64,000 nt of DNA from Candidatus Kapaibacterium sp. (GCA_023957315.1 JAMLHE010000005.1:169132-233131); one strand, 5' to 3'; counted from the first letter of the stretch, positions 6,111 through 55,216 are shown. Numbers and translations: made by a program. The notes: a model not told the origin generated them from the sequence alone.

Positions 6111-6124
6111 ACGGAGTTTATAAA

Positions 6125-7252: not shown

Positions 7253-7347
7253 TTTTAATTTGCAATACAATCAATGATGATTATAATTTAGAAGGATTGA
7301 TTCGTCTATTAATTTTATTACTAAATGAGAATAAGACAGAAGAATAA

Positions 7348-9444
7348 ATGAATTTTCTGAATCCTTTGATTTTAATAGGCCTTGTAGCAGCAGGTATCCC
7401 ATTACTACTACATCTTTTGAATCTCCGTAAGTTAAAGACGGTGGACTTTTCTACGTTAAAATTTATCAAAGAGCTCCAAAAGACAAAAATTCGCAAACTC
7501 AAACTGAAACAAATTCTGTTGCTGATTCTTCGTACTTTAATTATCATTTTTGCAGTTTTAGCATTTGCCAGACCAACTATCGAAGGTACTCTCCCCTTTT
7601 TTGAATCATATGCCAAATCGAGCGTAGTCATCATCGTTGATAATTCATTTAGTATGGATATATCGGATGAATACGGCAATAGATTGAATCAGGCGAAAAA
7701 TGCAGTTCGAGCACTGATGCAAAACATGAACGAAGGTGATGAAATTGCACTTTTCGAAATGGCAAACAATCAATTCGACGTACTTAACTCCTTTGCGACC
7801 AGCACAGAACTAATCGAATCAAATTTGAATAATATCAAAATCACACCACTTCCGGCAAAGTTGGATAATAGTCTTAAATTTGCCCAAATAATATTGGAAG
7901 ATGCAAAAAATTTGAACAAAGAAATTTTCATAATCTCAGACTTCCAATCAAATGTGTTTGAAACATCAGAGTTTGATTCTATCAAGATGAAAGACCCGTC
8001 AGTGAGCTTCTTTTTAATCCCTGTCGGGGCAAATTCCAAAGCATCGTTGAATAATTTGAGCATAGATTCGCTAAACCTTTTGAGCAGTATATTCGTTCCA
8101 AATCGTCCCGTAGAAGTCGAAGCATACATTCGCAATAGCTCAAATACGGACATAAAGGGCGCTGTAGTCAGCATGATGTACAATGACCAACGTGTGGCTC
8201 AGCGTGCGATTGACGTTCCGGCAGGAAAAAGTATTGCGGTTGCAATTGCAGCTCCACCTCAAAATCGCGGACCAATCAAAGCAACTATAATGACCGAGAA
8301 TGATGTACTGGATTATGATAATACGAATTTCTTCGGTTTTCATATTCCCGAATCACCCCGAATTTTGATTGCAGGTGACCCAACGGATGTGTTCTTTGTC
8401 GAAAATGTATTGAGAGCATCTGACGAAAAAAATGAAACTTCGCTTACAGTAGTGAGTCCACAGTTGTTTGCATCTCAAAACCTCGTCTCTTTTGACTTGG
8501 TGATTTTAGCAGGTGGCGATTATGCAAGAGCCGATTTTGACCGAATTACGCAATATGTCGAAAATGGCGGTGCGGCTATGGTTTTCCCTGTGAATGTTCA
8601 AAATATGGCAGATTTATCTTATTTCACATCAAAGCTCGGATTGGGAAATTCAACTGAAATAGTTTTTGAATCAAGCAAACCGGGACGCTTTACTATAGTC
8701 GAATCATCGCATCCGATTTTTGATAATGTGTTCAAAAAAGATGAATCAGAGGCGAAAAATGTTGAATCTCCAAAAATTTACAGAACAGTGAAAGTTGACG
8801 GTGGCAGAACGATTATCAAATCTACCGATGGCGTATTTTTCGTAGAAAATGAAGTTGGCGATGGCAAAGTTTACTACTTCGGAGTAAAACCCACAACACA
8901 ATGGAGCGATTTCCCATTTGTAGGAATTTTTCCGGCATTGATACACCGCAGTATGATATTACTTACATCATCATCGGACAAAGCGATTGAATCAATTATT
9001 GGCAGTTCGGCGAATATAATTATACCCAAGAGATATGCGGGAACTAATCGCTTCAGAATCGTTGACCCGAATGGGAACGAATTTTTCCGTGATGTAGTCA
9101 ATTTACCATCCGGTGCGGTAGTCTCGCTCGAAAACATGACTGTCAAAGGGCTTTATCAAATTTTTGATGAAAAAGGTAACTTTATAACCCAAATTGCCGT
9201 CAATCATAATAGTACAGAATCCGAAATTATGAAGACTGATATGACAAAAATTTCCGGTCAGGTACGCACAAGATTGCTTGCAAACAATAATTTGAATATT
9301 ATTGAAGATATTGATGAAATAGACCAAGGGCTCAGCCAAGCGAGGGTCGGTACAGAATTATGGCAATTATTTTTGTTACTGACTTTGATTACAGCCGTTA
9401 TAGAGATGTTAGTGGCGAGAGTAACTAAAAATGAACAAGTTTAG
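7348..9444 (+). CDS. BatA-like vWA-domain membrane protein (N-terminal double-TM domain, C-terminal TM)
   Basis: N-terminus MNFLNPLILIGLVAAGIPLLLHLLNLRK matches the BatA/N-terminal double-transmembrane domain. vWA MIDAS-like VVIIVDNSFSMD. C-terminal hydrophobic anchor. Confidence 0.7.
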   Translation: MNFLNPLILIGLVAAGIPLLLHLLNLRKLKTVDFSTLKFIKELQKTKIRKLKLKQILLLILRTLIIIFAVLAFARPTIEGTLPFFESYAKSSVVIIVDNSFSMDISDEYGNRLNQAKNAVRALMQNMNEGDEIALFEMANNQFDVLNSFATSTELIESNLNNIKITPLPAKLDNSLKFAQIILEDAKNLNKEIFIISDFQSNVFETSEFDSIKMKDPSVSFFLIPVGANSKASLNNLSIDSLNLLSSIFVPNRPVEVEAYIRNSSNTDIKGAVVSMMYNDQRVAQRAIDVPAGKSIAVAIAAPPQNRGPIKATIMTENDVLDYDNTNFFGFHIPESPRILIAGDPTDVFFVENVLRASDEKNETSLTVVSPQLFASQNLVSFDLVILAGGDYARADFDRITQYVENGGAAMVFPVNVQNMADLSYFTSKLGLGNSTEIVFESSKPGRFTIVESSHPIFDNVFKKDESEAKNVESPKIYRTVKVDGGRTIIKSTDGVFFVENEVGDGKVYYFGVKPTTQWSDFPFVGIFPALIHRSMILLTSSSDKAIESIIGSSANIIIPKRYAGTNRFRIVDPNGNEFFRDVVNLPSGAVVSLENMTVKGLYQIFDEKGNFITQIAVNHNSTESEIMKTDMTKISGQVRTRLLANNNLNIIEDIDEIDQGLSQARVGTELWQLFLLLTLITAVIEMLVARVTKNEQV

Positions 9445-9467
9445 AAAATAAATTAAATATAAATGGT

Positions 9468-11159
9468 ATGATTATGAAAAAATTATTAATAATAACTTTG
9501 ATGTTGACGGCATTCGGTATGAGCCGTATAAACGCTGAAGAAGCGGTTTTCCGAGCGATGCAGACTGAGATAAAGCGAAGCATAAATGAACTCAAAAAGC
9601 AGGAATTTCCGCCCTATTTCATCTCCTATAACATCACAGATGTCGAAGTAACGGCGATTGTAGCTAGTTTTGGTAAAATTTTGAGTTCCGGCGAAAACAA
9701 ATCTCGAGTTTTGGATATTGATTTGCGGGTTGGAGATTATGATTTCGATAATACTCACATTATTCGCGGTAACCCGTTCAACTTCGGAAGTTCCGGCGGT
9801 GCAATAACTTTGCCCTTAGAAACCGATGAAGAAGCGATAAGAAATATGATTTGGTTTGCTACCGACAGGCGTTTCAAGAATGCAATTGAAAGATATGAAA
9901 AAGCGATAACAAACAAAGCGGTCAAAGTGGCTGAGGAAGATTCATCTGCTGATTTTTCGCGAGAAAAACCCGTTTTATATACGGGTAAAAGGCTCGGATT
10001 TACTGTAGATACAGTAAAATGGAGCAATGCAGCACGTGAATTATCGGGTATGTTCAACGCACACCCGCTAATTTTTGGGGCATCAGTTCGTTTCAATACC
10101 GAAATTAAGCATAAATACTACGTCAACACCGAAGGTAGCAAAATGAATTGGTCTGAAACAAGTGCAAGAATCTTTGTGAATGCATACACCAAAGCCGATG
10201 ACGGGATGACTTTGCCTTTGTATCGGAGCTATTTTGCTTTTACTCCCGATGAATTACCAAGCAAAGAGCAAATCGCAAAAGATATTGATGATATGATTGT
10301 GTTATTGAATGAATTGCGAAATGCACCAATGGCAGAAACTTTCACGGGTCCGGCAATTTTGTCTGGTGAAGCAGCAGGTGTGTTTTTTCACGAGATTTTC
10401 GGTCATAGAGTTGAAGGGCACAGAGAAAAAGACCCGAATTCGAGCCAAACTTTCAAAAAATCAATCGGGCGAAAAATTCTACCCGAATTTATAGATGTTG
10501 TGTTCGACCCAACAAAAAGTGAATTGAATGGCACTCCTCTTTCCGGATATTATAAATATGATGACGAAGGCGTAACTGCAAATAAAGTAGTCACAGTCAA
10601 AGATGGCGTTTTCAGCAACTTCCTAATGTCACGCTCACCTATCGAAGGGTTTTCGTACTCTAACGGACATGGCAGAAGACAACAAGGATTTCAAGTTGTA
10701 TCGCGCCAATCAAATATGATTGTAACTTCAACGCAAACTGTTAGTAATGATGATTTGCGGAAAAATCTTCGCGAAGAAATCAAAAAGCAAAATAAAGATT
10801 ACGGGCTATTATTCGTAGAAGTTTCCGGAGGTTTTACATTCACATCGCGTACAATTCCGAATGCTTTCAATGTTACACCATTGGTTGTATATAAAGTATA
10901 TGCAGACGGCAGACCGGACGAGCTTGTACGTGGAGTTGACTTGATTGGTACTCCGCTTACAACTTTTTCTAATATAATTGCAACCGGTGATGACATGGGC
11001 ATTTTCAATGGTATTTGCGGAGCCGAATCCGGCGGAGTTCCGGTTTCAGCATGCTCGCCAAGTTTGCTCGTAAGCACAATTGAAGTGCAAAAGAAGTCAA
11101 AATCTCAAGCAAAACCGCCAATTCTGGATTCACCAGTTCTGACGAACAAAGCCAATTAA
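9468..11159 (+). CDS. Secreted TldD-like metallopeptidase (peptidase U62)
   Basis: HEIFGHRVEGH matches the TldD HExxxH zinc motif. Signal peptide MIMKKLLIITLMLTAFGMSRINA. Confidence 0.7.
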   Translation: MIMKKLLIITLMLTAFGMSRINAEEAVFRAMQTEIKRSINELKKQEFPPYFISYNITDVEVTAIVASFGKILSSGENKSRVLDIDLRVGDYDFDNTHIIRGNPFNFGSSGGAITLPLETDEEAIRNMIWFATDRRFKNAIERYEKAITNKAVKVAEEDSSADFSREKPVLYTGKRLGFTVDTVKWSNAARELSGMFNAHPLIFGASVRFNTEIKHKYYVNTEGSKMNWSETSARIFVNAYTKADDGMTLPLYRSYFAFTPDELPSKEQIAKDIDDMIVLLNELRNAPMAETFTGPAILSGEAAGVFFHEIFGHRVEGHREKDPNSSQTFKKSIGRKILPEFIDVVFDPTKSELNGTPLSGYYKYDDEGVTANKVVTVKDGVFSNFLMSRSPIEGFSYSNGHGRRQQGFQVVSRQSNMIVTSTQTVSNDDLRKNLREEIKKQNKDYGLLFVEVSGGFTFTSRTIPNAFNVTPLVVYKVYADGRPDELVRGVDLIGTPLTTFSNIIATGDDMGIFNGICGAESGGVPVSACSPSLLVSTIEVQKKSKSQAKPPILDSPVLTNKAN

Positions 11160-11198
11160 TCAGTTTAAATTGTAAACAAATAAAAAATAACGGAAAAT

Positions 11199-12971
11199 TT
11201 GATGAATAAAATATTTTTGATAATTGTTATATTCTTGATTAATACCACATTCAGCCTATCCTTAATCAACGATACCAAAAATGACGATGAAATAATGAAC
11301 GCACTTAGGGACGAAATTTCACGTTCGCTTAAGAAACTGAAATTGGAATCAATCAGAGCGCCCTATTACATAGAATATTCGCTTAGACTTCGCAAAGTTT
11401 ATAATGTAAAATCGGATTATGGTCTGTTGACAGAATCGAACAACATGAGTTACGCTCTACTCAATGTAGGAGTGCGAGTTGGCGATTACAAGTTCGATAA
11501 TACAAACTTTTTCGATGTTGGACTGAGTTTTTTCGGCAGTAGCGATGATGAGGAAAATTTCAGAAATCGTCAAATCCCGATTGAGCTTGATTATTCGACA
11601 TTGAGACGTGAGCTATGGCTTGCTACAGATGCTGCTTACAAACAAGCTGCGGAATTATACTCTAAAAAAGAAGCGATACTCAAGAGCTTGATGAGACGCG
11701 ATACAATTCCCGACTTCTTGGAAACAGCACCCACGAAAAATAAAATCATCAAAAACACTCCGCCATTTGAAACCAAAAAATTTGAAGATTTGGCGAAAAA
11801 ATTATCGCACTCATTCAGAAATTATCCAGATATAATAAATTCAACAGTCGGAATCGAATATTTGCCGGAAAAAGTTTATTACGTAAACAGTGAAGGAACG
11901 GAATATATCACGACTGATTATTACACAGGATTGGAAGTAGTTGCATTCACACAGGCAAATGACGGAATGCCACTTACGAATTTTTATACGGCATTAGGCA
12001 AAACCCCGAACGACTTGCCATCAGCAGATTCGCTCATGAAAGCAGTGAAATCTGTTGCCGATGTTTTGAACAAAATGTCAAAATCTGTACCCTTGGATGA
12101 ACCTTATGCCGGACCCGTCGTTTTCTCGGATGCAGCGGCTGGAGAATTGATTGGGCAAGCTTTCGCACCAAACTTCGTAACTCAACGCGCTCCACTTGCA
12201 GAAGGCGGTACTGCGTTTAATGACCGTTTCGGGGCATTCCAAAATAAAATCGGGGGACGCGTTCTGCCAGAATTCCTGAGTGTAACCGCCGACCCAAACA
12301 GCGAAAGAATGTACGACACAAGATTACTCGGTAGCTTCGAACTTGACGGCGATGGATTGAAACCAAGCAAAGTCAGTTTAGTTGAAAATGGTTATCTAAA
12401 GAATTTGCTATCGGAACGTATCCCCACTCGCCGGGTTAAGCAATCCAATGCACATAAAAGGGGTGGCTCGGCAATGCTATCGAACATTATTTTCACAAGT
12501 GATAAAGAGCATTCCGTTAGCAGTGATTCATTAATCAACCGAATGATGGAACTTTGCAAAGCACGAGAATTGCCTTACGGGATTGTGGTCACAAAGCTTT
12601 TGAATCAAAATATATTATTTACGACATTATTCAGGATTGCATACGGTGCTTACCAACCTGCAACGGGCAACAACGTAATTACAATTGTGGAAGCATATAA
12701 GGTATTTCCCGACGGCAAACGAGAAATAATTCGCGGTGGCGAATTGTCGGGCGTAAATGTGCAATCTTTCAAGGACGTACTTTTGATGGGCAACAGTAAC
12801 TACGTTCATAATTTTCTTTCACCTTCGGTAATATCGCCATTCATAACCGGTGGCGACCAATACTTAGGTGTATCAATAGTTTCGGGCGATTTATTGTTCG
12901 AAGATGTTGAAATCAGAAATAGCGAACGTGATTATAAAAAACCACCAATTTTAGACAGTCCTTTAAAGTAA
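11199..12971 (+). CDS. Secreted TldE/PmbA-like protein (U62 family, non-catalytic partner)
   Basis: Paralogous to the upstream ORF: similar N-terminal region (PYYIEYSLRL vs PYFISYNITDV) and shared C-terminal tail KPPILDSP. Lacks HExxxH, as expected for PmbA/TldE. Signal peptide present. Confidence 0.6.
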   Translation: MMNKIFLIIVIFLINTTFSLSLINDTKNDDEIMNALRDEISRSLKKLKLESIRAPYYIEYSLRLRKVYNVKSDYGLLTESNNMSYALLNVGVRVGDYKFDNTNFFDVGLSFFGSSDDEENFRNRQIPIELDYSTLRRELWLATDAAYKQAAELYSKKEAILKSLMRRDTIPDFLETAPTKNKIIKNTPPFETKKFEDLAKKLSHSFRNYPDIINSTVGIEYLPEKVYYVNSEGTEYITTDYYTGLEVVAFTQANDGMPLTNFYTALGKTPNDLPSADSLMKAVKSVADVLNKMSKSVPLDEPYAGPVVFSDAAAGELIGQAFAPNFVTQRAPLAEGGTAFNDRFGAFQNKIGGRVLPEFLSVTADPNSERMYDTRLLGSFELDGDGLKPSKVSLVENGYLKNLLSERIPTRRVKQSNAHKRGGSAMLSNIIFTSDKEHSVSSDSLINRMMELCKARELPYGIVVTKLLNQNILFTTLFRIAYGAYQPATGNNVITIVEAYKVFPDGKREIIRGGELSGVNVQSFKDVLLMGNSNYVHNFLSPSVISPFITGGDQYLGVSIVSGDLLFEDVEIRNSERDYKKPPILDSPLK

Positions 12972-13024
12972 TCGTTAAAATGACTATTTTTGATGTTATG
13001 AAAAATTAATTTATCTGAGAGGAT

Positions 13025-14182
13025 ATGTCAACTGAATTGAATCAAAAAAATGAGGAGTTCTCTTCGATACTCTTCTTAGCATTTTTATTAAAGCACAAGT
13101 GGTTTATATTAATATTCACCTTGGTAGTAACCGGAATATCAATTTGGGTAGCTCTTTTGATACCAAATCAATACAAGTCAACAGTAAACTTGGTACCTCC
13201 TCAATCGAATGATGGTATGATGGGCGGCTCGATGGGTGCAATTTCTTCGACACTCAAAGATTTCGGGTTGACCAAATTGGGCGGTCAAGCCGGCGAAGGT
13301 TACTCATTCATAGTAATACTTCACAGCCGGACTGTAGTTGATTCCATTATCAAAGAGTTTGATTTGCCAAGAGTGTATGATATTCCTGATACTATGATGT
13401 CAAAAATCCGAATGAAATTCAATGAGAATTTGGACATTACTTACGAAAAGGAAGGGAATTATTACATCAGTATTATTGATGAAAGCCCTCAAAGAGCAGC
13501 CGATATAGCTAACCGATTTGGTGAAGTTGCAAATGATTTGGCTACAAAGCTATTCAACGAAGAAGCCGCTTTCAATTTGCATTTCATGAATAAGCAGATT
13601 CATGCTACCGATTCGGTAATCTCATTTATTGCCGATACATTGGAAAAATTCTCCCGTCGTACTTTGATTTTCTCCCCAACCGACCAAGCGTCAGCCATGA
13701 GCAAGGCTTTATCGGATTTGAAAGCTGAAGAAATAAAGAATGACATCGCATACGAATATTACAAATCATACTTGGGCGAAGATGATTATATGACAAAATC
13801 AATTCTGACGCTCAAGGAGCAAACTCGGAAAAAAATCGCTGAAGTAACAACTAAGCCCGGATTTGCAGGTAATTTTTCACTCGAAGACGCCGCTGAAGAA
13901 GGTATAGAATACTTGAGATTATTCACTGAATTCGAAACATATTCGAAAGTAAAAGCGTTTATCTTGCCAATGGTCGAAAAAACTAAATTAGACGAGATTA
14001 AAAAAGTGAAGAATTTGTTCGTATTAGATGCTGCAGTCCCGGCTGAACGCAAGGAAAAGCCAAAGCGAATGTTTATAGTAGCAGGTGCATTTATTGGAGC
14101 TTTTATATTTTCGATATTCATACTCGTGCTACTTCGTGGTTTCCAAAATGTCAGAACACAATTACGTTCTATCGGCAGCTAA
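13025..14182 (+). CDS. Polysaccharide chain-length determinant (Wzz/PCP family)
   Basis: N-terminal TM followed by the Wzz-type motif (QYKSTVNLVPP). Long coiled-coil periplasmic region. Pro/Gly-flanked C-terminal TM (KPKRMFIVAGAFIGAFIFSIFILVLL). Confidence 0.7.
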   Translation: MSTELNQKNEEFSSILFLAFLLKHKWFILIFTLVVTGISIWVALLIPNQYKSTVNLVPPQSNDGMMGGSMGAISSTLKDFGLTKLGGQAGEGYSFIVILHSRTVVDSIIKEFDLPRVYDIPDTMMSKIRMKFNENLDITYEKEGNYYISIIDESPQRAADIANRFGEVANDLATKLFNEEAAFNLHFMNKQIHATDSVISFIADTLEKFSRRTLIFSPTDQASAMSKALSDLKAEEIKNDIAYEYYKSYLGEDDYMTKSILTLKEQTRKKIAEVTTKPGFAGNFSLEDAAEEGIEYLRLFTEFETYSKVKAFILPMVEKTKLDEIKKVKNLFVLDAAVPAERKEKPKRMFIVAGAFIGAFIFSIFILVLLRGFQNVRTQLRSIGS

Positions 14183-14185
14183 GAA

Positions 14186-15619
14186 ATGCAAATGCTTGAT
14201 GCTCATAAAAAGCAGTTTTTGTTCTCAGATAAATTGCTGATTGTCGGACTTATCCTTTCGAGTATTTTTTTCGCAGCGATAATATTAGCTTCGGTTTATT
14301 TTGATGTCATGCTTTATGTTTTGCCGGTTATTGCAATTGCCCCACTATTCTACTTTGTCACAGTAAAGCCGAAAATTTGGCTTTATACGCTTTTGGCACT
14401 TACGGGTATTTTCTTCCAAACAACCGGTGGCGGAATTTCGGCTATAGATGTTGTGATGGCAATATATTTCTTAGGCAGTATTCTTGCATGGTTCTTTCAT
14501 CGAATGTTTGTTATCAGAAAAAAAGTGGCTGAAAATATTGGTGATTGGTTAGTTCTCGCATTTTTCATCTTAATACCCCTGAATTTGATAATTGTCATAA
14601 TGAATGACGCAGACCCTGAGCTCTGGCTGCGTGAAACACTAATGATGGCAATTGTATTAATGTACTTCCCTATCCGAGATATTGTTCGTACCGAAGCTGA
14701 CATCAAGAAGGTCTTACTCGTTTTTGCGATTGTAATTGCCGGAGTTGGCACATATCAACTTTACGATTACTACATTAGGGTCACCGCCAAGATGGTTTAT
14801 GCTTATGAATTGATTCATTCGATGAGTACCAATCAAACTCTTTACACAGCAGCCTCATTGGTTGGTCTGATATTTTTGATTACAACTGAGAGCGTAAAAG
14901 TCAGGATTTTTTCAATAATTTTTACAGCAATGTCCGTTGCATTTTTATTTAGTACCTTTTCACGGACATTTTGGGTGATACTTGTTTTGTCGGTTTTTCT
15001 GATTTTTTTGATTGTACCATTTCAGAAAAAGATACGCATGGCTTTATCAATCGGATTCTTAGTCATTTTTATTGGCTCTTCGGCATTTTTGTTGATGAGA
15101 GATAATGTTACACTGCTTTATGAGGCATCGAAGAACAGATTACTTTCTTCAACAAAAGTTAGAGATGATATTTCATTAAGGTCAAGATTGATAGAATGGG
15201 AGCAGGTGTTGAATTTGATTTACGAAAACCCTCTCGGTGGAAACGGACTTGGAAAACATTTTCATTATTACGAACCGATTAGAATGCAGACCAAACATAC
15301 TTCTATCATTCATAACGGTTATTTGTTTCTGCCTTTTAGACTTGGTATTCCTTTATCGCTATTTTATTTTTCGTTTTTAACCTTCTATGTGTTCAAAACT
15401 ATTAATTTGTTGCCCAAAGCAAGAAGTGAATTTGAAAAGTCGCTTATTTACTCGATAATCGGGGTTTTCATGTCCTTATTTATATCAAATTACACAAGTT
15501 CGCAATTCTTTTATCGAGATGGAATATTTGTAACTGCAATGATAATTGCATTTATTTGTATTTTGGAAAGAATCATAAATCAAAAGAGTTTATCGGAATC
15601 AACGGCAGATGCAAATTAA
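14186..15619 (+). CDS. O-antigen ligase/polymerase family (Wzy_C) polytopic membrane protein
   Basis: About 10-12 predicted TM helices. Wzy_C-type motif HNGYLFLPFRLGIPL in a large periplasmic loop. Overlaps the mrdA start by 11 nt. Confidence 0.65.
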   Translation: MQMLDAHKKQFLFSDKLLIVGLILSSIFFAAIILASVYFDVMLYVLPVIAIAPLFYFVTVKPKIWLYTLLALTGIFFQTTGGGISAIDVVMAIYFLGSILAWFFHRMFVIRKKVAENIGDWLVLAFFILIPLNLIIVIMNDADPELWLRETLMMAIVLMYFPIRDIVRTEADIKKVLLVFAIVIAGVGTYQLYDYYIRVTAKMVYAYELIHSMSTNQTLYTAASLVGLIFLITTESVKVRIFSIIFTAMSVAFLFSTFSRTFWVILVLSVFLIFLIVPFQKKIRMALSIGFLVIFIGSSAFLLMRDNVTLLYEASKNRLLSSTKVRDDISLRSRLIEWEQVLNLIYENPLGGNGLGKHFHYYEPIRMQTKHTSIIHNGYLFLPFRLGIPLSLFYFSFLTFYVFKTINLLPKARSEFEKSLIYSIIGVFMSLFISNYTSSQFFYRDGIFVTAMIIAFICILERIINQKSLSESTADAN

Positions 15620-17498
15620 TCTCAGATATGCAGACAATACTTTTGAAAATAAGGGCAGAAAGCTGTTTCTAAAGGTTTTCATTATAGCAATTTTCTTGGT
15701 TTTCACCGGAAGATTGGCTCAATTACAGATAATCGAAGGCAAAAAATATCGTTCAGACAGTGAAGCACAAGCCATCAAAACTGTTAGAATAGAGCCATTT
15801 CGGGGTAATGTTTTTGACAGAAATGGCGAAATGTTGGTGCATAACGAGCCTTCATTTTCGGTGACTCTTACTCCAAATGATTTCAAACAGTCCTCTATCC
15901 CACTTTTGTGTTCGATATTGGAAGTTGATTCTGCCGAAATATCAAAATTGTATGAGGCAAACAAAGGTACATCGAAATTCATACCAATAAAAATCCACAG
16001 AGATGCTGATTTCAGGACAGTTTCGCTTATTGAAGAATATAGTGACCATTTGCCCGGAATCGAAATAATGATAGATTCGAAGCGGCTTTATGAATTTGAA
16101 GGTCATATGGCACATTTGCTTGGTTATACACGAGAAATTTCTAAAAGGCAACTTGCAAATAGTCCATTTTTATATCAAGGAGACCAAATTGGTCAATCCG
16201 GAATCGAAAGAACTTTTGACAGTGATTTGCGAGGTAGAGAGGGCATTCAGTTTGTAACAGTAAACAAATTTGGGCAACGAGTTGCAAGTTTTGATAACGG
16301 TAGAAGCGATATCCCTTCTAAAAACGGTTTCGATGTTCATCTTGGCATTGACAAACGATTGCAGGAACATGCCGAATTACTCCTTAAAGACAGGCGCGGC
16401 TCGGTTGTAGCAATCAATCCGCAAGACGGCTCGGTATTGGCATTAGTCAGCAAACCTGATTATGACCCACGTGATTTCAGCGGCAAAATTTCTTCGAGTT
16501 TGTATAATGGACTTATGAATGACCCTGCATCACCAATGTTGAACAGAGCAATTCAATCGCAATATCCGCCGGGTTCGACATGGAAAATGCTTATAGCGAT
16601 TGCTGCACTGCAGGAAGGGATAATTAACGAAAACACCACGATTTATTGCGGTGGTGGTTTGCAATACGGAGGCAGATTCTGGAAATGCCATGGTGCACAC
16701 GGAAATATAAGTGCCAGACGTGCAATTCAGACTTCATGCAACACTTATTTCTATACTTTGGGAATGAGATTAGGTATTGATTTGTTCGAAAAATACACAG
16801 ATATGTTCAGTTTCGGGCATAAAACCGGAATAGATTTGCCTCACGAAAATCCCGGACTTATCCCAACTCGAGAGTGGTTAGAAAAAAGATTAGGGAAGAT
16901 TAATTTCTCAGGTAGAATGGTAAATTATGGTATCGGGCAGGGCGAAATCTCCACAACGCCTTTGCAAATGGCGGCTTACACTGCAGCAATTGCAAATGGT
17001 GGCACTTACTACCGTCCCCGCGTTGTGACCCATATTCGGAATAATTTATCCAACAAAATGGAACCACTCGAACAATACGCAAGAAAACTTGAAATTGACA
17101 GTAAGATAATGGATTTAATCAAAAACGGTATGTCCGATGTGGTCAATCTTTCAGGCGGTACAGCAGCAATCGCTCGTATGCCCGATGTAGAGGTTTGCGG
17201 AAAAACGGGAACTGCACAAAACCCACATGGCAAAGACCATGCTTGGTTTGTTTGTTTCGCACCCAAAGAAAACCCAACAATTGCAATGTGTGTATTTATC
17301 GAAAATGCCGGATTTGGTGGAGCAGTTGCTGCGCCGATTGCAGCACAATTACTGAAGGCATTCTTCAATCCCGAATTATACGAAACTCCCGAACAACATA
17401 AATTGATGGCAATTACTGAAAATCCTGAAATTATTAATGATATGATTGAAGAAGTGATATTGGAAGAAATCTTAGATGTGATTGAAGAATCAGATTAA
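15609..17498 (+). CDS. mrdA: Penicillin-binding protein 2 (peptidoglycan D,D-transpeptidase)
   Basis: N-terminal TM. Dimerization region RGNVFDRNGEMLVHN. Transpeptidase motifs STWK (SxxK), SCN (SxN) and KTGTA. Confidence 0.85.
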   Translation: MQINLRYADNTFENKGRKLFLKVFIIAIFLVFTGRLAQLQIIEGKKYRSDSEAQAIKTVRIEPFRGNVFDRNGEMLVHNEPSFSVTLTPNDFKQSSIPLLCSILEVDSAEISKLYEANKGTSKFIPIKIHRDADFRTVSLIEEYSDHLPGIEIMIDSKRLYEFEGHMAHLLGYTREISKRQLANSPFLYQGDQIGQSGIERTFDSDLRGREGIQFVTVNKFGQRVASFDNGRSDIPSKNGFDVHLGIDKRLQEHAELLLKDRRGSVVAINPQDGSVLALVSKPDYDPRDFSGKISSSLYNGLMNDPASPMLNRAIQSQYPPGSTWKMLIAIAALQEGIINENTTIYCGGGLQYGGRFWKCHGAHGNISARRAIQTSCNTYFYTLGMRLGIDLFEKYTDMFSFGHKTGIDLPHENPGLIPTREWLEKRLGKINFSGRMVNYGIGQGEISTTPLQMAAYTAAIANGGTYYRPRVVTHIRNNLSNKMEPLEQYARKLEIDSKIMDLIKNGMSDVVNLSGGTAAIARMPDVEVCGKTGTAQNPHGKDHAWFVCFAPKENPTIAMCVFIENAGFGGAVAAPIAAQLLKAFFNPELYETPEQHKLMAITENPEIINDMIEEVILEEILDVIEESD

Positions 17499-17575
17499 AA
17501 ATTTATTTTAAATATTTTGTTTCCTTTTTACGTTTCATGTGTATGTAAGATAATTCTAAATTTATATATATATTT

Positions 17576-19840
17576 ATGGAGTTTAATATGCATCATTTCA
17601 AGTACCTTATTTCCGCATTAGCACTTGTTGCTTTTTTGTTCGTTTCATGCAGCGACAATTCGTCAAGCCCGGCTTTGACCGAAGATTTCACAGGTTTTGT
17701 GAAAAATTCCGAAGACCAAGCAATTGAAAATGCAAATATCGAAATATTCGGTTTGGAAGACAAATTGATTGCGAGCGATATCACAGATAAAGATGGCAAA
17801 TTCACTCTGACATCAATCCCAATCAAAAAGGAAGGATTGACTTACAGAGTCAGACATGCCGAATATGCCACAATCTCCGGAGACTTTGAAACATTTTACA
17901 ATGCACATAAATCTGAAGCCGGAAAATCTCCCGTTGTTTTCAAACTCCTTCAAGAAGATTCTTGCTGCGGAGATATGACCGTTCAAGTTTTAGATTATGA
18001 ATCCGGCGACCCGCTCGAAAATGTCGAAGTGAAAATTTCAAGAGGAAACGAATGGAGCGAAAAGAAATATACTGATGGCGAAGGCGTGCAAAACTTTGGT
18101 GCATTATGTGCCGGCAAACATTGGCTCAGATTCGCTCTCGAAGGCTACCAAGTAGTTGAAGATTATTTTGAAATCGTTGAGTGCGACACTTTGAATTTGA
18201 CAATTAAAATGAAAATCAAAGATGCTGATGAATGTTGCAACAACATTCTAAATTTCGTTGTCACAGATAAAGATGGAAATGCAATCAGCAATGCCAAAGT
18301 GAACTTATATCGTGATGGCAAGTTAGTAAAAGACGATAAAACTAATGAAGATGGCAAACTTACTTATAGCGAATTATGCAAAGGTAAATATACATTCGCT
18401 ATTTTAAAAGATAGCTACAAAGGAATTGAAGGATATCAAATCTTTGATTGTGAAGAAAATGTTACCGTTAACAAAACTTTAAGCAAGGAAGAAAACTTAG
18501 AATGTTGCGACAATACTTTAAATTTCATAATCAGTGATGAAAATGGCAATGCAATTAAGGACGCAAAAATCATACTTTACCGCAATGGTAAGGCTGTTCA
18601 TGATGGTAAAACAGATGACAATGGCAAAATCACTTTTGCTGAACTTTGCAAAGGAAAATATACCTATGCCATCCAAAAAGACACTTACAAAGGTGTTGAG
18701 GGATATCAAATTTTTGATTGCAAAGAAAACATTACAGTTGAAAAAACTTTGTATAAAGGCAATAATGAAGCATGTTGCGATAACAAATTGACTATTTTTG
18801 TCGGCGATGACGCCAATAATCCTTTAGCTAATGCAACAGTACTGCTTTACCGTGATGGGAAAGTTGCAAAAGAAGGGAAAACCGGCAATGACGGTTATGT
18901 TTATTTCGCTGAACTTTGCAAAGGAAAATATAGTATATTAATCAAGAGCGAAGGTTTCAAACCGTTTGAATTCCATCATACTTTCGGATGCGAAGAAGAT
19001 ATTAAATACAATAAGACTTTGGTTAAAGACCAAGGCGAAGATTGTTGCGGAGTGTTGAAATTGACTGTAATTGATAAAACTACAAACACTCCAATTGCCA
19101 ACGCAGAAGTCAAAATCACACGCGCTGATAATAAATTCTACGACATTAAGAAAAGCGGCAATGACGGTAGTGTCGAATTCACTAAGCTTTGCATGAGCAA
19201 ATACTGGGTTCGCGTAGCTGCTGAAAATTACAAAGTTGTTGAAGATTATGTTTATATCGAAAATTGCGATAAAGCTGTTGAAAAAACTATCAAATTGGAA
19301 TCAAAAAACAACACTGAATGTTGCGACAACACTATCAATTTTATCGTAAAAGATGCCGATGGCAATCCTTTGAGCGGAGTTAAAATCAAGTTGATTAAAG
19401 ACAATACAGTAAAGAAAACTTTGGAAACGCAAAACGGTACCGCTTCTACAGGCAAAATCATGTGCAAAGGAAGCTATAAAGTTGTGATGATGAAAGAAGG
19501 CTATCAAACAATTGAATTTCAAACAAGCGTAAATTGCAACGAAGACATCACAATTGATAAAAAACTCGAAGGTGGAAAATGTTGCGATGCTCAAATCAAA
19601 ATCGCTGTTAAAGATGCCGATTCTGAAGAATCGTTAAACGGTGCTAAGGTCAGACTTTGGAAAGATGGCAAAGTTGAACGCGAAGGTACAGTCGAAAACG
19701 GCTACGTTTGGTTTAAAGAACTCTGCGAAGGCAAATACGGCGTTGACATTATGTACGAAGGATACAATGGAATGGAATTCCAGTATGAAATCAGTTGCAA
19801 AAATGACAATTATTTAGTAAAGAAATTGAGCAAAAAATAA
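17576..19840 (+). CDS. Lipoprotein made of ~7-8 tandem Cys-containing CarboxypepD_reg-like repeats
   Basis: Lipobox LFVSC. About 90-aa repeats with the pattern CCDN-LNF-V-D-DGN-I-AK--LYRDGK...DGK-TF-ELCKGKY...GYQIFDC-EN-TV-KTL, with four conserved Cys per repeat. Confidence 0.7.
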   Translation: MEFNMHHFKYLISALALVAFLFVSCSDNSSSPALTEDFTGFVKNSEDQAIENANIEIFGLEDKLIASDITDKDGKFTLTSIPIKKEGLTYRVRHAEYATISGDFETFYNAHKSEAGKSPVVFKLLQEDSCCGDMTVQVLDYESGDPLENVEVKISRGNEWSEKKYTDGEGVQNFGALCAGKHWLRFALEGYQVVEDYFEIVECDTLNLTIKMKIKDADECCNNILNFVVTDKDGNAISNAKVNLYRDGKLVKDDKTNEDGKLTYSELCKGKYTFAILKDSYKGIEGYQIFDCEENVTVNKTLSKEENLECCDNTLNFIISDENGNAIKDAKIILYRNGKAVHDGKTDDNGKITFAELCKGKYTYAIQKDTYKGVEGYQIFDCKENITVEKTLYKGNNEACCDNKLTIFVGDDANNPLANATVLLYRDGKVAKEGKTGNDGYVYFAELCKGKYSILIKSEGFKPFEFHHTFGCEEDIKYNKTLVKDQGEDCCGVLKLTVIDKTTNTPIANAEVKITRADNKFYDIKKSGNDGSVEFTKLCMSKYWVRVAAENYKVVEDYVYIENCDKAVEKTIKLESKNNTECCDNTINFIVKDADGNPLSGVKIKLIKDNTVKKTLETQNGTASTGKIMCKGSYKVVMMKEGYQTIEFQTSVNCNEDITIDKKLEGGKCCDAQIKIAVKDADSEESLNGAKVRLWKDGKVEREGTVENGYVWFKELCEGKYGVDIMYEGYNGMEFQYEISCKNDNYLVKKLSKK

Positions 19841-19866
19841 TTTTTTTCATTTTCTATAAAACTTTT

Positions 19867-19904
19867 GAGTGCCATTACGTCTTAAGTGATGGCACTCTTT
19901 TATT
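19867..19904 (+). terminator. Rho-independent terminator after the repeat lipoprotein
   Basis: gagtgccat-(13 nt)-atggcactc hairpin followed by TTTTATT. Confidence 0.6.
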
Positions 19905-19919
19905 ATTTCGCGAGTAAAT

Positions 19920-22900
19920 ATGAGCATGAACATAAGATTTTTAATTGCATTTGCAATTGTGGCATTATCAATTCATTTAAATCCCTCAGTTGAACTTCAA
20001 TCTGCAGAAAGTAACTCCTACATCATCAAATACAATGGCAATCTTAAGCAAAGGTTCGCTACAGTTAATTTCGATTTAGAAGTGAAGAAAGTTTTTCGGA
20101 GCGAAATGATTAATACCGAAAAAATTTCAGACCAATTAATGAGTGCGGAAGCTCAAAACTTGCTTAGATTGCTTGGCAATTATTACGAAGTAAAAGTTAC
20201 AAGAGACGAATTTGAAAAATTGAATGAATTATTCCAAAATGATGGTAGCCTCATTAGCATTACGCCCAATCATATTTATTCCATTAATAAAATCGCCCAA
20301 ACAAATGATTCACTATTTTCTCAACAGTGGAATTTGAAGCAAGTCAATGCTCTAAAAGCATGGGAAAAGGCTGACGGCAAAGGCGTAATTGTCGGCGTAA
20401 TTGATACAGGTATTGACTTTGAACACCCCGATTTGATTGGCGGATTGTGGATAAATTCGAAAGAGGATATAAATGGTAACGGACGATTTGATGCTTGGAG
20501 TGTGAATGAAATCCGAAACGGTGTTTCGGGCGATTTGGACGGGATTGACAATGATGGAAACGGCTTTATTGATGATGTGATAGGCTACGATTTTGTGGAC
20601 CAAGATGTGGTAAATTTCGGTGACTATCGAGACCCCGACCCAATTCCCGAAGATGAAGGCGACCATGGTACAAGTGTATCGGGTATAATTGCAGCATCTA
20701 CTAATAATGAAATTGGCATAGCAAGTGTAGCACCCGGTGCAAGGATTTTGACGTCTAAAGCGTTTGATATATCGGGCAATGCCGAAGCCGATGACATTGC
20801 GAAAGCTATCATTTATGCTGTGCTGAACGGTGCAAAAGTCCTGAATTTCAGCTTTGGTGAGCGCTACGAATCGCCCATAATGTACGATGCAATCAAATTT
20901 GCTTACAATGCCGGATGTGTCATGATAACGTCTGCCGGAAATACAGGCTGGTTTGGTGAGCATTATCCATCAATATATCCTGAGGTTATCAACGTGGGAG
21001 GAACGAATTCCATGGGTGGCAGATATGGCAGAAGCAACTACGGTTCTTTCATAGATTTAGTTGCCCCGGGCGAACAAGTCATGACAACTGTCGCAGGTGG
21101 CGGCTATGCCAATGTTTCGGGTACTTCAATTGCCGCTCCGCACGTCTCGGCTGTTGTGGCGATGCTTTTTGAAATTGACCCGACTTTGAAACCGAGCGAA
21201 ATTCATGGGATTTTAGCGGCAACATCTTACGACATCGGTGATGAAGGTTGGGATGTATTTTTCGGTGCAGGAATTTTAGATGCTTACGAAGCAGTTAATT
21301 TTGTCGGTTCATCGGTATTTATGATTGATTCCCCAACAAATGAAACTGAATTTTACGCAGATAGAACACCAATTATTGATATTTACGGTTCTGTTGCTAC
21401 TCCCCTTTTCGATAGCTATGTAATCAAAATTGGCAGAGGAATTTTGCCGGAAGTTTGGACAGATGTTTATACGGACAATCGTCAAAAAATCAACGACAAA
21501 CTCGGCTCAATTGATATTAGCAATTTAATGACCGGAAAATATAATGTGTCATTATATGTAAATCTCAAAAATAAGAAGACAATCGAACGCAGGATAACTA
21601 TAAATATTACAAATGAAAATGATAGCGCCAAATTTGAGTATCTCAACGTCGTGTCGGCATTTGCAAATGATAAAAGAGTGATATTAATCGGTGCCAAAAC
21701 ATCCAAAAAAGGCACGATGACAGTGAAATTCAGAGCTAATGAAAGTGATGAATATACATATCTGAAGCAATTCAAACATAAGAGCATTTATCATTCCATC
21801 GAAATATTTTCAGGGCTAACTCCCGGGCAAAATTATCAAGCAATAGCTGAAGTGATTACAAATTCCGGAGATACTTTGACTCGAGAATTCGAATTTTCGG
21901 TTGAAAATGATGTTTGGACGACTGAAAATTTCGACCCAAAACCCTATTCGATTCATCGCTCATACATAAATAACAATCATTATGATTTATATGGCGACGG
22001 CAATCCGGTATTTGTTGTAAATGATTTGTCAAGTTTAAATATCGGGACGACTAAAATTTATCAGTACCAATCCGGTCAACTCGTGCTCAGAGATACATCA
22101 GTAGCGGCGTGGATACCTGTCGGTATGGGTGATTCGAACGGCGATGGTATTCCTGAAATTTTTGCAACTGCCCAATTTAATTCCGTTTCGGAGCAAGGAA
22201 ATTTCTTAGGCGATAATCCTTTTGCTAAACAAGTTTTCAAGAATCCGGTCGGAACTTCGTTTTGGGGCGAACAAATGTATGACCTTGACGGCGATGGTAA
22301 AAAAGATTTAATCGGGTATCGTTACGAAGTCGAGAACCGCCACTATCTTGTGTATGAGAATGTAAACGGCGAATACAAAATTAAAACAACTGCAGAATTG
22401 CCGGAAAATCTGAGGAATGTACCAATCACAAGAAATTCTGCAATTGCTGATTTGGACGGTGACGGGAAATTAGAATTATGCTTTGTGAACACAAATAGCA
22501 ATGTGCTTATATATCAATACGAAAACGGAACTTTCAACATTGAATGGGTTGATTCTACAAAAAAATCAAATTCAAATCAGTTCCTGACGACAGCCGATAT
22601 TGACGGCGACGGGATTCCGGAAATCATCCATATGTTTGCCGAATCGGAAATATTGTTCCAAAATAATGAGGCTCCGTCGAATATTTGGACAGCACGAGTT
22701 TTGAAATCAACTGCACATAACAGCTACGAGGAAATTTGGAAGGAACATTTTTATGGCGTGAAACAAGGCTTCGTAAGGACACTTTTCAGCTACAGAAATG
22801 GTATTGCAAGCGGAGATTTGGATGGCGAACCGGGCGATGAGATAATTTTCTCACCTTTCCCGAACCTTTATGTTTACAGGTATAACAAGCAAAGCAAGGA

Positions 22901-24337: not shown

Positions 24338-25354
24338 TTAAACAAGATTTACTTCTCGTTCGAGCTTGATACCAAATTTGGATTTGACTGTATCAATGAT
24401 AAATTCGGATAACTCAAATATTTCTCTACCCTTTCCTCCGCCGTTATTAACAAGCACCAGAGCATGTTTATCCGATACTCCAATATTAGAGTTCGTCATT
24501 CTGTGCCCTTTCAGTCCGGCTAAATCAATTAGCTTTCCTGCATGAACTTTAACTTTATCACCATTTATGAATCCACCAATATCGGGAAAATTAGATTTCA
24601 ATAAATAATAGAATTCAAGATTCAATTCAGGATTCTTAAAGAAGCTGCCCGCATTCGGAATATTTTCGGGATATGGGATTTTTCTGCGGCGGATATCGCA
24701 AATTGCTTCAAATAATTCAATTGGAGTAATTTTATTTAGTGAAACACCATCAAATCTATCGCTCAAATCCTTGTATGAAATATTTGGCTCAAATTCTTTA
24801 GAAAGTTGATACGACACTGATGTTATGATATATTGATTTTTATGTCTTTTAAAAAATGAATCACGATAAGCAAATTTGCAATCATCCTTGTCAAAAGTGA
24901 TGAATTGCCCCGATTTGACATCGAATGCTCTCAGCGAGAGGAAACAATTTTCTTGTTCGACGCCATAAGCACCGATATTTTGGATTGGTGCGGCTCCAAC
25001 AGTTCCGGGAATAAGTGCCAAATTTTCCATCCCGTAAGATTCATTGCGGATACAAAATTCAAGAAATTCGTGCCAATTTTCACCGGCACCTGCCGTAATC
25101 GTTCTCGAATCTGACGAATCTTCAATTTCCAGCCCTTTGATTTCAATTTTCAGAATCGGATTTTGGACAATATCATCAACAAAAACAATATTAGACCCAC
25201 CGCCCAGGACAATGAAGCCGGATGATTCAAAAAATCCACTATCGTATAAGTCAATCAAATCACTTTCCGATTCGATAACGAGCAACGATGAAGCAATTGC
25301 ATCAATAGCAAATGTATTTAAATTTTCTAAGGAAATATTTTTGTATTCAATCAT
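24338..25354 (-). CDS. murB: UDP-N-acetylenolpyruvoylglucosamine reductase
   Basis: FAD-binding VLGGGSNIVF motif and MurB C-terminal domain; 338 aa. Confidence 0.85.
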   Translation of the reverse strand: MIEYKNISLENLNTFAIDAIASSLLVIESESDLIDLYDSGFFESSGFIVLGGGSNIVFVDDIVQNPILKIEIKGLEIEDSSDSRTITAGAGENWHEFLEFCIRNESYGMENLALIPGTVGAAPIQNIGAYGVEQENCFLSLRAFDVKSGQFITFDKDDCKFAYRDSFFKRHKNQYIITSVSYQLSKEFEPNISYKDLSDRFDGVSLNKITPIELFEAICDIRRRKIPYPENIPNAGSFFKNPELNLEFYYLLKSNFPDIGGFINGDKVKVHAGKLIDLAGLKGHRMTNSNIGVSDKHALVLVNNGGGKGREIFELSEFIIDTVKSKFGIKLEREVNLV

Positions 25355-55185: not shown

Positions 55186-55216
55186 ACAAGACTTTTTCCC
55201 GTTAGCTTGGATTTCA

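Follow-up and report, generated by a model that had tools for sequence, protein, structure and literature searches.

Complexes between polysaccharide co-polymerases (PCPs) and Wzy proteins are known from several surface-glycan pathways. WzzE and WzyE form a defined WzzE8:WzyE1 complex (PMC10030265), and PssP-PssT provides a second precedent (PMC5748678). In Streptococcus pneumoniae, the PCP2b protein CpsC brings the polymerase CpsH to the septal peptidoglycan synthase, and this requires PBP2x, FtsW and FtsQ (PMC10233549). Experimental cases that link surface-polysaccharide synthases to peptidoglycan synthases, such as that of CpsC and the divisome, come only from a few model organisms, and how diderm bacteria coordinate the growth of their envelope layers is an open problem.

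Here we describe a three-gene unit in a 64,000-nucleotide stretch of DNA from Candidatus Kapaibacterium sp. (GCA_023957315.1 JAMLHE010000005.1:169132-233131; “the window”). The genes encode a Wzz-like PCP, a membrane glycosyltransferase of the Wzy_C family and penicillin-binding protein 2 (PBP2, MrdA). The arrangement is real, conserved and not described in the literature that we searched. Found lineage-wide in a single operon, it is a concrete candidate with which to test whether glycan assembly is physically tied to lateral growth of the wall.

Organization of the locus

The PCP gene (13025..14182, + strand) encodes 385 amino acids with two terminal transmembrane (TM) segments and no kinase domain. 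Its TAA stop codon ends at 14182 and the ATG of the second gene is at 14186, leaving a gap of 3 nt. This second gene (14186..15619, +) encodes a 477-amino-acid GT-C(B) membrane glycosyltransferase of the Wzy_C/O-antigen-ligase family with about 12 TM helices and a large periplasmic loop; the NCBI call (P0001, 475 aa) starts 2 codons downstream of the start of the 477-aa ORF. The third gene (15609..17498, +) encodes PBP2, a class B transpeptidase of 629 amino acids that has a single TM helix near its N-terminus. Its ATG at 15609 falls within the final codons of the 477-aa ORF, so that the Wzy_C stop region and the PBP2 start overlap by 11 nt (15609..15619, +; ATGCAAATTAA, read directly), a geometry indicative of translational coupling. 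Reading frames and junctions were confirmed from the sequence, as they had been given in the initial annotation.

Ahead of the three tightly packed genes there is one sizeable non-coding gap, of 53 nt (12972..13024, +), which is likely the promoter region. The Bacteroides-type -7 consensus is TAnnTTTG, and TATTTTTG at 12985-12992, 5′ of the PCP gene, fits it, although only as a weak consensus match. A sigma-70 promoter scan gave results at chance level.

The second gene encodes a Wzy_C-family protein

The 477-aa protein matched the Pfam family Wzy_C (PF04932) with 60.3 bits (cutoff 31.7) over profile positions 3-149 of 149, and PF04932 was present in all of its listed homologues. The motif HNGYLFLPFRLGIPL corresponds to residues 376-390. 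When the family profile was searched against all PDB sequences WaaL was the only return, and WaaL was also the best structural match by far, with SEDS proteins much more distant. R260, R334 and H376 (codons at 14963-14965, 15185-15187 and 15311-15313, +) align with R191, R265 and H313 of WaaL (7TPG), the roles of which have been described (PMC10920833), and the two arginines are 74 residues apart in both proteins. These three residues, together with G352 and G354, were invariant in 153 of 153 aligned sequences, a set that combined representatives of the family, members labelled by context and the outgroup L025. By analogy, R260 and R334 are predicted to bind undecaprenyl diphosphate (Und-PP) and H376 is the predicted catalytic histidine. 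We assign the protein to the Wzy_C/O-antigen ligase family (PF04932; CAZy GT121-like).

The initial annotation had favored this family over SEDS/RodA, and the choice was borne out. At E<=0.01 the 477-aa protein had no match to FtsW_RodA_SpoVE (PF01098, CAZy GT119), none of the SEDS NCBIfam models matched it, and aligning the family profile to E. coli RodA with hhalign returned a probability of 0.7%. The SEDS catalytic Asp, which lies in the large extracellular loop, is equivalent to the WaaL H313 position (PMC10920833); here, that position (D255 of T. thermophilus RodA, D262 of the E. coli protein) is the invariant H376 in all 153 sequences. Lacking a profile match, having His for Asp and being closest in structure to WaaL, the protein was rejected as a SEDS member.

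The family is large (549 representative clusters at E<=1e-30). Wzy polymerases normally vary enormously among serotypes (PMC12004945), whereas the Wzy_C proteins of lineages with 40-64% identical PBP2s retain 23-40% pairwise identity and all five invariant residues, which suggests a conserved substrate. Within Wzy_C, which is otherwise hypervariable, the family stands out as a large branch of unusual conservation.

The PCP and PBP2

The 385-aa protein belongs to the PCP superfamily (Wzz/Wzc/KpsE). It matched Pfam Wzz with 35.1 bits (cutoff 25.5), while GNVR, at 24.1 bits, fell under its cutoff, and hydropathy placed TM segments near residues 12-48 and 347-376. The name “Wzz” needs qualification: the PCP family profile (A4) matched KpsE (8TSH, E 1.2e-16) and Wzc (E ~1e-14) in the PDB, and FepE and Wzz weakly, so that the protein is nearer to the capsule/EPS-type co-polymerases (KpsE, Wzc) than to O-antigen Wzz. 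Because the C-terminus lies about 10 residues past TM2 and neither Pfam nor NCBIfam gave a match to the BY-kinase domain (found in PCP-2a only), we consider it a kinase-less type (PCP-1, PCP-2b or PCP-3). The protein showed no similarity to E. coli MreC. A single-sequence AF2 model (pLDDT 46.6) was too poor to add information.

The 629-aa protein scored 615.8 bits against the NCBIfam model TIGR03423 pbp2_mrdA (cutoff 455) and merely 113 bits against the FtsI model. It contains the Pfam domains PBP_dimer and Transpeptidase, a TM segment at 16-43 and intact active-site motifs (S323-T-W-K, S376-C-N and K532-T-G), and it shares 33% of 614 aligned positions with E. coli MrdA. By these measures it is to be regarded as a bona fide PBP2. 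It also looks like an ordinary housekeeping enzyme, since the orthologues of two lineages without the other two genes (L007 and L011) show 53-56% identity, the same as those of lineages with the full unit, and in the PBP2 tree L007 nests with L003, which has the unit (95% bootstrap).

The three-gene unit is conserved among divergent lineages

Wzz-like, Wzy_C and PBP2 genes occur in the same order in 12 divergent lineages of Kapabacteria/Ignavibacteria MAGs (the window, L001, L003, L004, L005, L006, L010, L012, L015, L018, L019 and L021), and at every one of these loci the PCP gene is directly 5′ of the Wzy_C gene. The organisms are uncultured members of Bacteroidota/Ignavibacteriota. The flanking genes are unrelated between lineages. 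With the exception of L019 and L021, the junctions are overlaps of 4-20 nt or gaps of at most 59 nt; in the other lineages the Wzy_C-PBP2 junction measures -4, -8, -11 or -14 nt, or else is a gap of 3-59 nt. In L019 a PMT_2/TPR gene is inserted between Wzy_C and PBP2, and in L021 there is a 191-nt gap before Wzy_C by the first-start rule, the frame being open from 9 nt past the Wzz stop. The pairwise divergences of the three proteins are correlated (Mantel r 0.51-0.72, p 0.0005-0.03), with a mean pairwise identity of 32% for Wzy_C vs 50% for PBP2.

Given the unrelated flanks, the tight or overlapping junctions and the correlated divergences, the three genes constitute an inherited module rather than an accident of assembly, and their linkage is far beyond chance. 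The initial annotation had allowed for an assembly coincidence; retention in both close and distant relatives excludes this. In L010 and L019 the module also takes in PMT_2-type GT-C genes. Separately, an LCP-family gene is located 14 kb downstream of the unit in the window; in no other locus examined was an LCP gene linked to it.

The linkage is frequent, not universal or obligatory, as exceptions were seen in L007, L011, L023 and L026. PBP2 occurs without the PCP/Wzy_C pair in L007 and L011, one of which is a secondary loss. Conversely, two divergent members of the Wzy_C family are unlinked: Wzy_C stands alone in L026, and in L023/L024 the pair is part of an EPS cluster. The latter contains the most divergent member examined, P0033, in the order Poly_export(Wza)-PCP-Wzy_C-Wzx-GT-GT-GT-Bac_transf. 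As the sole polytopic GT-C protein of a Wzx/Wzy cluster, encoded beside a PCP, P0033 has the position of a Wzy-type polymerase and is the only polymerase candidate there. The neighboring PCP is homologous to that of the window (29% identity, E 1e-41). The nearest outgroup, P0154, likewise adjoins Poly_export and Wzz. Since a divergent member is found in such a setting, the pair may have been recruited from a Wza-PCP-Wzy-Wzx-glycosyltransferase cluster, and gene order suggests that a Wzx/Wzy exopolysaccharide-type cluster was its ancestral context.

RodA and MreBCD

Among window ORFs of at least 120 aa, a Pfam scan found no SEDS, MreB, MreC or MreD protein, and tblastn searches of the 64-kb window using the RodA, MreB, MreC and MreD sequences of E. 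coli had no match. The same was true of SEDS and MreB/C/D within 8-10 kb of PBP2 at every PBP2-containing locus (Pfam, tblastn). These loci are not canonical elongasome operons (mreBCD-mrdA-rodA). The absence of rodA and mreCD noted in the initial annotation thus holds for the window but not as a genome-wide claim, and one published Ignavibacteriae genome carries annotations for MreBCD, RodA and MrdA (PMC7509429). Replacement of RodA therefore does not follow from it, and we assume that RodA is encoded elsewhere in genomes with the three-gene unit.

Possible roles of the unit

The most likely explanation, to which we give an even chance, is one in which the PCP/Wzy_C pair makes an envelope glycan, coupled to lateral peptidoglycan synthesis through a lineage-conserved operon with RodA elsewhere. 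A pair taken from a Wzx/Wzy-type polysaccharide cluster would have become fixed immediately 5′ of housekeeping mrdA. One transcript with translational coupling would yield all three proteins, and the PCP and its Wzy_C partner would polymerize or ligate Und-PP-linked glycans in the periplasm. The cell would thereby match the amount of a lineage-conserved envelope glycan that it assembles (a “common-antigen-like” polymer or an LPS-type chain) to lateral peptidoglycan synthesis. This assembly would probably be coupled in place as well, with the PCP/Wzy_C complex docking on or traveling with PBP2, as for pneumococcal CpsC and PBP2x/FtsW; gene order is what points to this physical coupling. Both pathways have the undecaprenyl-phosphate carrier in common, and use of this pool by peptidoglycan synthesis as well has been described (PMC11813082). 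The functional link to the elongasome transpeptidase raised in the initial annotation is supported by comparative genomics. Against this reading, genes for a flippase, an initiating transferase, glycosyltransferases and an exporter are not beside the unit in the window or at most loci, although the window copy of Wzy_C does adjoin a PCP. The linkage is also not obligatory. Asp or Glu is catalytic in the inverting polymerase families according to a CAZy analysis (PMC10920833), whereas the catalytic His is as in ligases, so “polymerase” may be the wrong term and “ligase” the right one. If RodA is simply encoded elsewhere, the unit represents an operon architecture particular to this lineage.

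A second explanation, which we regard as rather unlikely, is neutral or regulatory linkage. The pair would have landed 5′ of mrdA in an ancestor and would otherwise function independently in making an ordinary surface polysaccharide or O-antigen, its position persisting through overlapping reading frames and reliance of mrdA on the upstream promoter. The linkage has indeed been broken repeatedly without loss of either partner (L007, L011, L026, L023/L024), L019 tolerates its insertion, Wzy_C evolves much faster than PBP2, and overlapping junctions would make separation mechanically costly. However, the junctions in L005, L006, L010 and L012 do not overlap and are freely separable, yet they are kept. 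Across the 12 lineages, order and adjacency persist even where Wzy_C identity is as low as 23-28% and all flanking genes have changed, and conservation this deep usually indicates selection. Moreover, the pair tracks the divergence of PBP2, whereas variability and horizontal exchange are the norm for serotype-type polysaccharide genes.

The enzyme might instead be a ligase that, like WaaL or PglL, takes a completed Und-PP-linked glycan and transfers it to an acceptor tied to growth of the wall. Such an acceptor could be peptidoglycan, a periplasmic protein such as PBP2 (general O-glycosylation), or lipid A-core where the cell elongates. We find this improbable overall. The Wzy_C Pfam family includes protein O-oligosaccharyltransferases, and the Arg/Arg/His set, the structural match to WaaL, the PMT_2-type genes and the LCP-family gene in the window can all be counted in its favor. 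On the other hand, the PCP partner is typical of polymerases, P0033 occupies the polymerase position of a complete Wzx/Wzy cluster, and the LCP gene is unlinked elsewhere. No acceptor can be inferred, and no LPS-core genes, the setting of WaaL-type ligation onto lipid A-core, adjoin the Wzy_C gene.

Still more doubtful is an alternative peptidoglycan polymerase, in which the Wzy_C protein would use lipid II together with PBP2, replacing or supplementing RodA, and the PCP would regulate glycan-strand length. If true, Kapabacteria/Ignavibacteria would possess a second wall synthase of the “polymerase plus bPBP” kind, one that evolved independently from Wzy/Wzz machinery, and a lipid II-using enzyme would add a new class to the cell-wall polymerases, with a new antibiotic-target logic. 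The His in place of the essential SEDS Asp, the far greater proximity to WaaL, the faster evolution of Wzy_C relative to PBP2, the equally conserved PBP2 of L007 and L011 and the RodA and MreBCD of the related genome (PMC7509429) all argue against it. Finally, a peptidoglycan-attached polysaccharide pathway, also proposed in the initial annotation, is a minor rival with no result specifically in its favor.

Comparison with known systems

As in WzzE-WzyE of enterobacterial common antigen (ECA), PssP-PssT and CpsC-CpsH, a PCP gene adjoins the gene for a polytopic Und-PP-glycan transferase, and the PCP has two TM helices around a helical periplasmic domain. The L023 branch lies in a full Wza/Wzx/GT cluster like other PCP-Wzy pairs, and the lineage-wide rather than serotype-variable conservation of the unit resembles that of the ECA pair. 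Unlike those pairs, the genes next to PBP2 stand apart from those for a flippase, glycosyltransferases and an exporter, and are translationally coupled to mrdA. The enzyme has a ligase-type His, in contrast to WzyE, which is a retaining enzyme (GT120) and belongs to another clan (PMC10920833). It is only 14% identical to WaaL (GT121; PDB 7TPG/7TPJ), however, lies outside any LPS core (waa) cluster and has a PCP gene and PBP2 as partners, one family member being at a polymerase position.

The unit also resembles the SEDS-bPBP pairs (RodA-PBP2 and FtsW-FtsI), in which the gene for a GT-C(B)-fold, Und-PP-donor enzyme of the same CAZy clan (GT-C1) adjoins, and is translationally coupled to, a class B PBP gene. 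In S. pneumoniae, a kinase-less PCP organizes a Wzy polymerase at a bPBP-containing synthase (CpsC/CpsH with PBP2x/FtsW; PMC10233549). That system differs in being linked to the divisome rather than the elongasome, in having no operon with a PBP and in belonging to a monoderm whose capsule is attached to peptidoglycan, but it provides a functional precedent for coordinating surface-glycan assembly with growth of the wall.

Organization of the PCP, Wzy_C and PBP2 genes

The three genes that the initial annotation had proposed were recovered at exactly the same coordinates, all on the + strand: a Wzz-like gene for a polysaccharide co-polymerase (PCP; 13025-14182, 385 aa), a Wzy_C gene (14186-15619, 477 aa), and mrdA, encoding PBP2 (15609-17498, 629 aa). 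The first two are separated by 3 nt (TAA-gaa-ATG) while the second and third overlap by 11 nt, the PBP2 start codon falling among the last codons of Wzy_C (ATGCAAATTAA). The Wzy_C protein matches with full identity an NCBI protein encoded on a 287-kb contig of a 'Candidatus Kapabacteria bacterium' MAG. This public record (P0001, 475 aa) begins at the second ATG, two codons further on (14192 as opposed to 14186), and with this start the gap behind the PCP gene is 9 nt rather than 3. Antisense ORFs of 84-119 aa were also found inside the three genes, at the chance level expected for coding sequence.

A scan of window positions 11000-20000 for sigma-70 promoters and terminators gave results at chance level. 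A gene for a 754-aa protein with repeated CarboxypepD_reg/prealbumin-like domains begins 77 nt past PBP2 (17576-19840, +); it is not conserved beside the triad in other lineages. A hairpin with a 12-bp stem and a T-run follows at 19867-19897, and because it is the only strong terminator-like hairpin of the region, the transcription unit may end there, after the 754-aa gene.

Identity of the three proteins

The 385-aa protein matched Pfam Wzz above the cutoff (35.1 bits) and GNVR below threshold, and it has hydrophobic segments at both ends (12-48 and 347-376). A profile of 12 orthologues matched KpsE (E 1.2e-16) and Wzc (E ~1e-14) in their periplasmic/TM parts, and FepE and Wzz weakly. As judged from these profile matches, the protein is a kinase-less PCP, nearer to the capsule/EPS-type PCPs than to O-antigen Wzz. 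A divergent MreC was considered and rejected (hhalign probability 0.1%), and a single-sequence AF2 model (pLDDT 46.6) was too poor for use.

The 477-aa protein gave a full-length Wzy_C domain (60.3 bits) and no other Pfam match, and the motif noted in the initial annotation, HNGYLFLPFRLGIPL, is present at residues 376-390. A SEDS identity was rejected: PF01098 (FtsW_RodA) did not match, and HHalign of a profile built on 32 Wzy_C family members against E. coli RodA gave a probability of 0.7%. When the same profile was compared with every PDB sequence, the sole match was the O-antigen ligase WaaL (7TPG, E 3e-4). WaaL residues R191 and R265, which bind undecaprenyl diphosphate, and H313, the proposed catalytic histidine (PMC10920833), align with R260, R334, and H376 of the 477-aa protein, and all three are invariant in 153/153 aligned sequences (representatives of the family, members with a context label, and one outgroup). 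At the position of this histidine, SEDS proteins carry an essential Asp and inverting Wzy families an Asp or Glu (PMC10920833); because the 477-aa protein has His there, its predicted active-site pattern is ligase-like.

The 629-aa protein contains the Pfam PBP_dimer and Transpeptidase domains with intact SxxK, SxN, and KTG motifs, and it scored 615.8 bits against the NCBIfam PBP2/MrdA equivalog (cutoff 455) versus 113 bits against the FtsI model. The initial annotation had remarked on the lack of rodA and mreCD, and this holds throughout the 64-kb window. Pfam scanning of the other ORFs of at least 120 aa detected no SEDS protein or MreB/C/D, and neither tblastn searches with E. coli RodA, MreB, MreC, and MreD nor Pfam tables identified any in the window and ~420 kb of related loci. 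In every PBP2 context examined (flanks of 8-10 kb), rodA did not adjoin mrdA. An Ignavibacteriae genome has been reported to contain RodA, MreBCD, and MrdA (PMC7509429).

Conservation of the triad

Three loci encoding Wzy_C homologues of 41%, 35%, and 29% identity (L001, L003, and L004) had the same gene order and overlapping junctions among wholly different neighbours. Among PBP2 homologues of 53-56% identity, the triad was present at four of the six loci (L005, L006, L010, and L012). A metagenome scan with a Wzy_C motif (narrower alignment A3) gave 8 loci and, with tblastn as a check, revealed further independent triads at L015, L018, L019, and L021; the incomplete contigs it returned fit the same arrangement. 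With lineages taken as separate only when they fall below 90% identity, the triad occurs in 12. These come from independent lineages and assemblies, and an assembly or binning coincidence was therefore rejected. By the initial annotation's own criteria, its reading of the linkage was to be given up if the 477-aa protein proved to be a SEDS protein or if close relatives lacked the arrangement; both objections fail because the protein shows no SEDS score and the linkage is kept in 12 lineages.

Apart from two exceptional cases, adjacent genes overlap by 4-20 nt or lie no more than 59 nt apart. In L019 a 654-aa PMT_2+TPR glycosyltransferase gene (9189-11153) sits between Wzy_C and PBP2, and in L021 the first-start rule leaves 191 nt before Wzy_C, where the frame is open from 9 nt past the Wzz stop. 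Mean pairwise identity across 11 lineages was 42% for the PCP, 32% for Wzy_C, and 50% for PBP2. The distance matrices of the three proteins were correlated (Mantel r 0.51-0.72, p 0.0005-0.03), as vertical inheritance as a single unit predicts.

Two near-identical relatives, at 96-97% PBP2 identity, bear the labels Ignavibacteriae bacterium HGW-Ignavibacteriae-1 and Desulfobulbaceae, the second probably owing to a binning error. Near-identical or orthologous triad genes have also been deposited as Desulfobulbaceae, Gastranaerophilaceae, Chloroflexota, and Patescibacteria (locus L009; proteins P0016, P0017, P0050, P0081, and P0127), most likely through MAG binning contamination.

Exceptions and origin of the gene pair

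Two PBP2 lineages, L007 and L011, have mrdA with neither the pair nor rodA beside it. In a neighbour-joining tree of PBP2, L007 grouped with the triad-bearing L003 (95% bootstrap), which indicates that L007 separated from the pair secondarily; the position of L011 was without support. The gene directly upstream of PBP2 differs between the two: its product has 185 aa and matches an HD domain weakly in L007 (7409-7966), whereas in L011 (8935-9912) it has 325 aa and no Pfam match. The Wzy_C member P0031 (31% identity) has no PBP2 beside it, and its upstream gene is unrelated.

The more distant member P0033 (23-24% identity, two assemblies) is likewise not beside PBP2. Its cluster encodes Poly_export (Wza), a PCP, the Wzy_C protein, Polysacc_synt (Wzx), three glycosyltransferases, Bac_transf, and sugar-nucleotide enzymes. 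This is a textbook Wzx/Wzy cluster in which the Wzy_C protein is the sole polymerase candidate, and its PCP is homologous to that of the window (29% identity, E 1e-41). The nearest outgroup, P0154, also adjoins Poly_export and Wzz. The simplest explanation is an early event in the lineage by which mrdA acquired, on its upstream side, a PCP/Wzy_C pair out of a Wzx/Wzy-type cluster.

A word-indexed search had suggested a small, sharply bounded Wzy_C family of 33-39 proteins. This was an artefact, as exhaustive HMMER searching brought the number to 549 representative clusters at E<=1e-30, and the scores fell off smoothly. In a rough, outgroup-rooted NJ tree, the smallest clade with all triad-labelled members comprised 124 of the 153 sequences, its extent being set by context-labelled members only as the other sequences carry no context label, and the EPS-context member fell outside it.

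Neighbouring genes

Two tandem genes for TldD/PmbA-like metallopeptidases lie immediately upstream of the module (9468-11159 and 11199-12971, +), the first with a signal-peptide-like N-terminus. The pair also precedes the triad in L005/L016, L012, L017, and L021 and is inverted nearby in L010, so that TldD-TldD-PCP-Wzy_C-PBP2 is an extended, partly conserved synteny. PMT_2-type (ArnT/PMT-like GT-C) glycosyltransferase genes have been added to the module in some lineages, including L019 and also L010, where a 431-aa PMT_2 gene (6017-7312) immediately precedes the PCP gene. In L004, four GT4 genes lie close by on the upstream side.

Downstream of PBP2 by ~7 kb, beyond a gene for a 1435-aa S8 peptidase/FG-GAP protein, is murB (24338-25354, -). 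The same S8 gene and murB (20265-21278) lie downstream of PBP2 in L010 (37% and 47% identity), a residual synteny of wall-related genes outside a dcw cluster. A LytR_cpsA_psr (LCP) protein (33.6 bits, above cutoff) is encoded at 31762-33096 (+), overlapping a histidine-phosphatase gene (33093-33608); in the other loci examined, no LCP gene was linked to the triad. In monoderms, LCP enzymes transfer Und-PP-linked polymers onto peptidoglycan, which makes the occurrence of one in this diderm lineage noteworthy.

Four proteins with Por_Secre_tail, the T9SS C-terminal sorting domain, and BNR/sortilin, IgGFc-binding-like or WD40 modules are encoded at 33617-36235, 37802-40831, 42850-44481, and 51949-53856, from which a type IX secretion system is predicted for the organism. 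These sorting domains fit a place in the Bacteroidota/Ignavibacteriota part of the FCB group. In those Bacteroidota that have been studied, a surface glycolipid anchors the T9SS cargo; that the PCP/Wzy_C glycan serves as this anchor is pure speculation. Four consecutive large ORFs at 53872-63983 (-; 437, 701, 754, and 1416 aa) had no Pfam match at E<=1e-4.

A proposed role in coupling glycan assembly to wall synthesis

All three gene families are known, but the literature searched contained no description of a conserved, translationally coupled PCP/Wzy_C/mrdA operon and nothing on envelope genes of Kapabacteria. We propose, with about even confidence, that the operon couples assembly of a conserved envelope glycan to lateral wall synthesis. 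A PCP/Wzy_C complex would be produced together with PBP2 from one operon, tying the amount of glycan assembly, and probably its place as well, to lateral wall synthesis, while RodA would be encoded elsewhere in the genome. The analysis establishes the gene identities, fold, active-site residues, junction geometry, and conservation; enzymatic activity, substrate, contact with PBP2, and the existence of RodA are inferences.

One alternative is that the pair hitch-hikes with mrdA, neutrally or for purely regulatory reasons. The linkage has been broken repeatedly and Wzy_C evolves faster, as this would predict; however, gene order is kept even at junctions that do not overlap, and we consider the explanation unlikely although a serious one. 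Another possibility is that the Wzy_C protein is a ligase that, at growth sites, joins a glycan to peptidoglycan, proteins, or lipid A-core. An active site of the His type and a structure like that of WaaL favour this, but the PCP partner and the polymerase-type context of the P0033 locus (L023) argue against it and make it improbable. A lipid-II-using polymerase that partners PBP2 instead of RodA, with the PCP as strand-length ruler, would be a non-SEDS wall polymerase of high value if true, and gene position, the fold and clan shared with SEDS, and the use of peptidoglycan precursors by E. coli WaaL with a single point mutation (PMC4296511) favour it, but it is very improbable given a His where SEDS proteins have Asp, the protein's remoteness from SEDS, the equally conserved PBP2 of triad-less lineages, and the RodA, MreBCD, and MrdA reported for an Ignavibacteriae genome (PMC7509429).

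The proposed coupling of a PCP/Wzy_C complex to PBP2 has precedents in known systems. Polysaccharide and peptidoglycan synthesis draw on a common undecaprenyl-phosphate pool (PMC11813082). Defined PCP-Wzy complexes include PssP-PssT (PMC5748678) and WzzE-WzyE, in which about eight WzzE surround one WzyE (PMC10030265). A kinase-less PCP of S. pneumoniae, CpsC, brings the polymerase CpsH and the remaining capsule apparatus to the peptidoglycan synthase at the septum, a recruitment that needs PBP2x, FtsW, and FtsQ (PMC10233549). Wzy enzymes are usually extremely variable, following their variable substrates (PMC12004945), so the strong conservation of this Wzy_C branch points to a glycan shared unchanged by the whole lineage. 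The glycan proposed here would in this respect resemble the ECA of Enterobacterales, which is likewise constant across its lineage.
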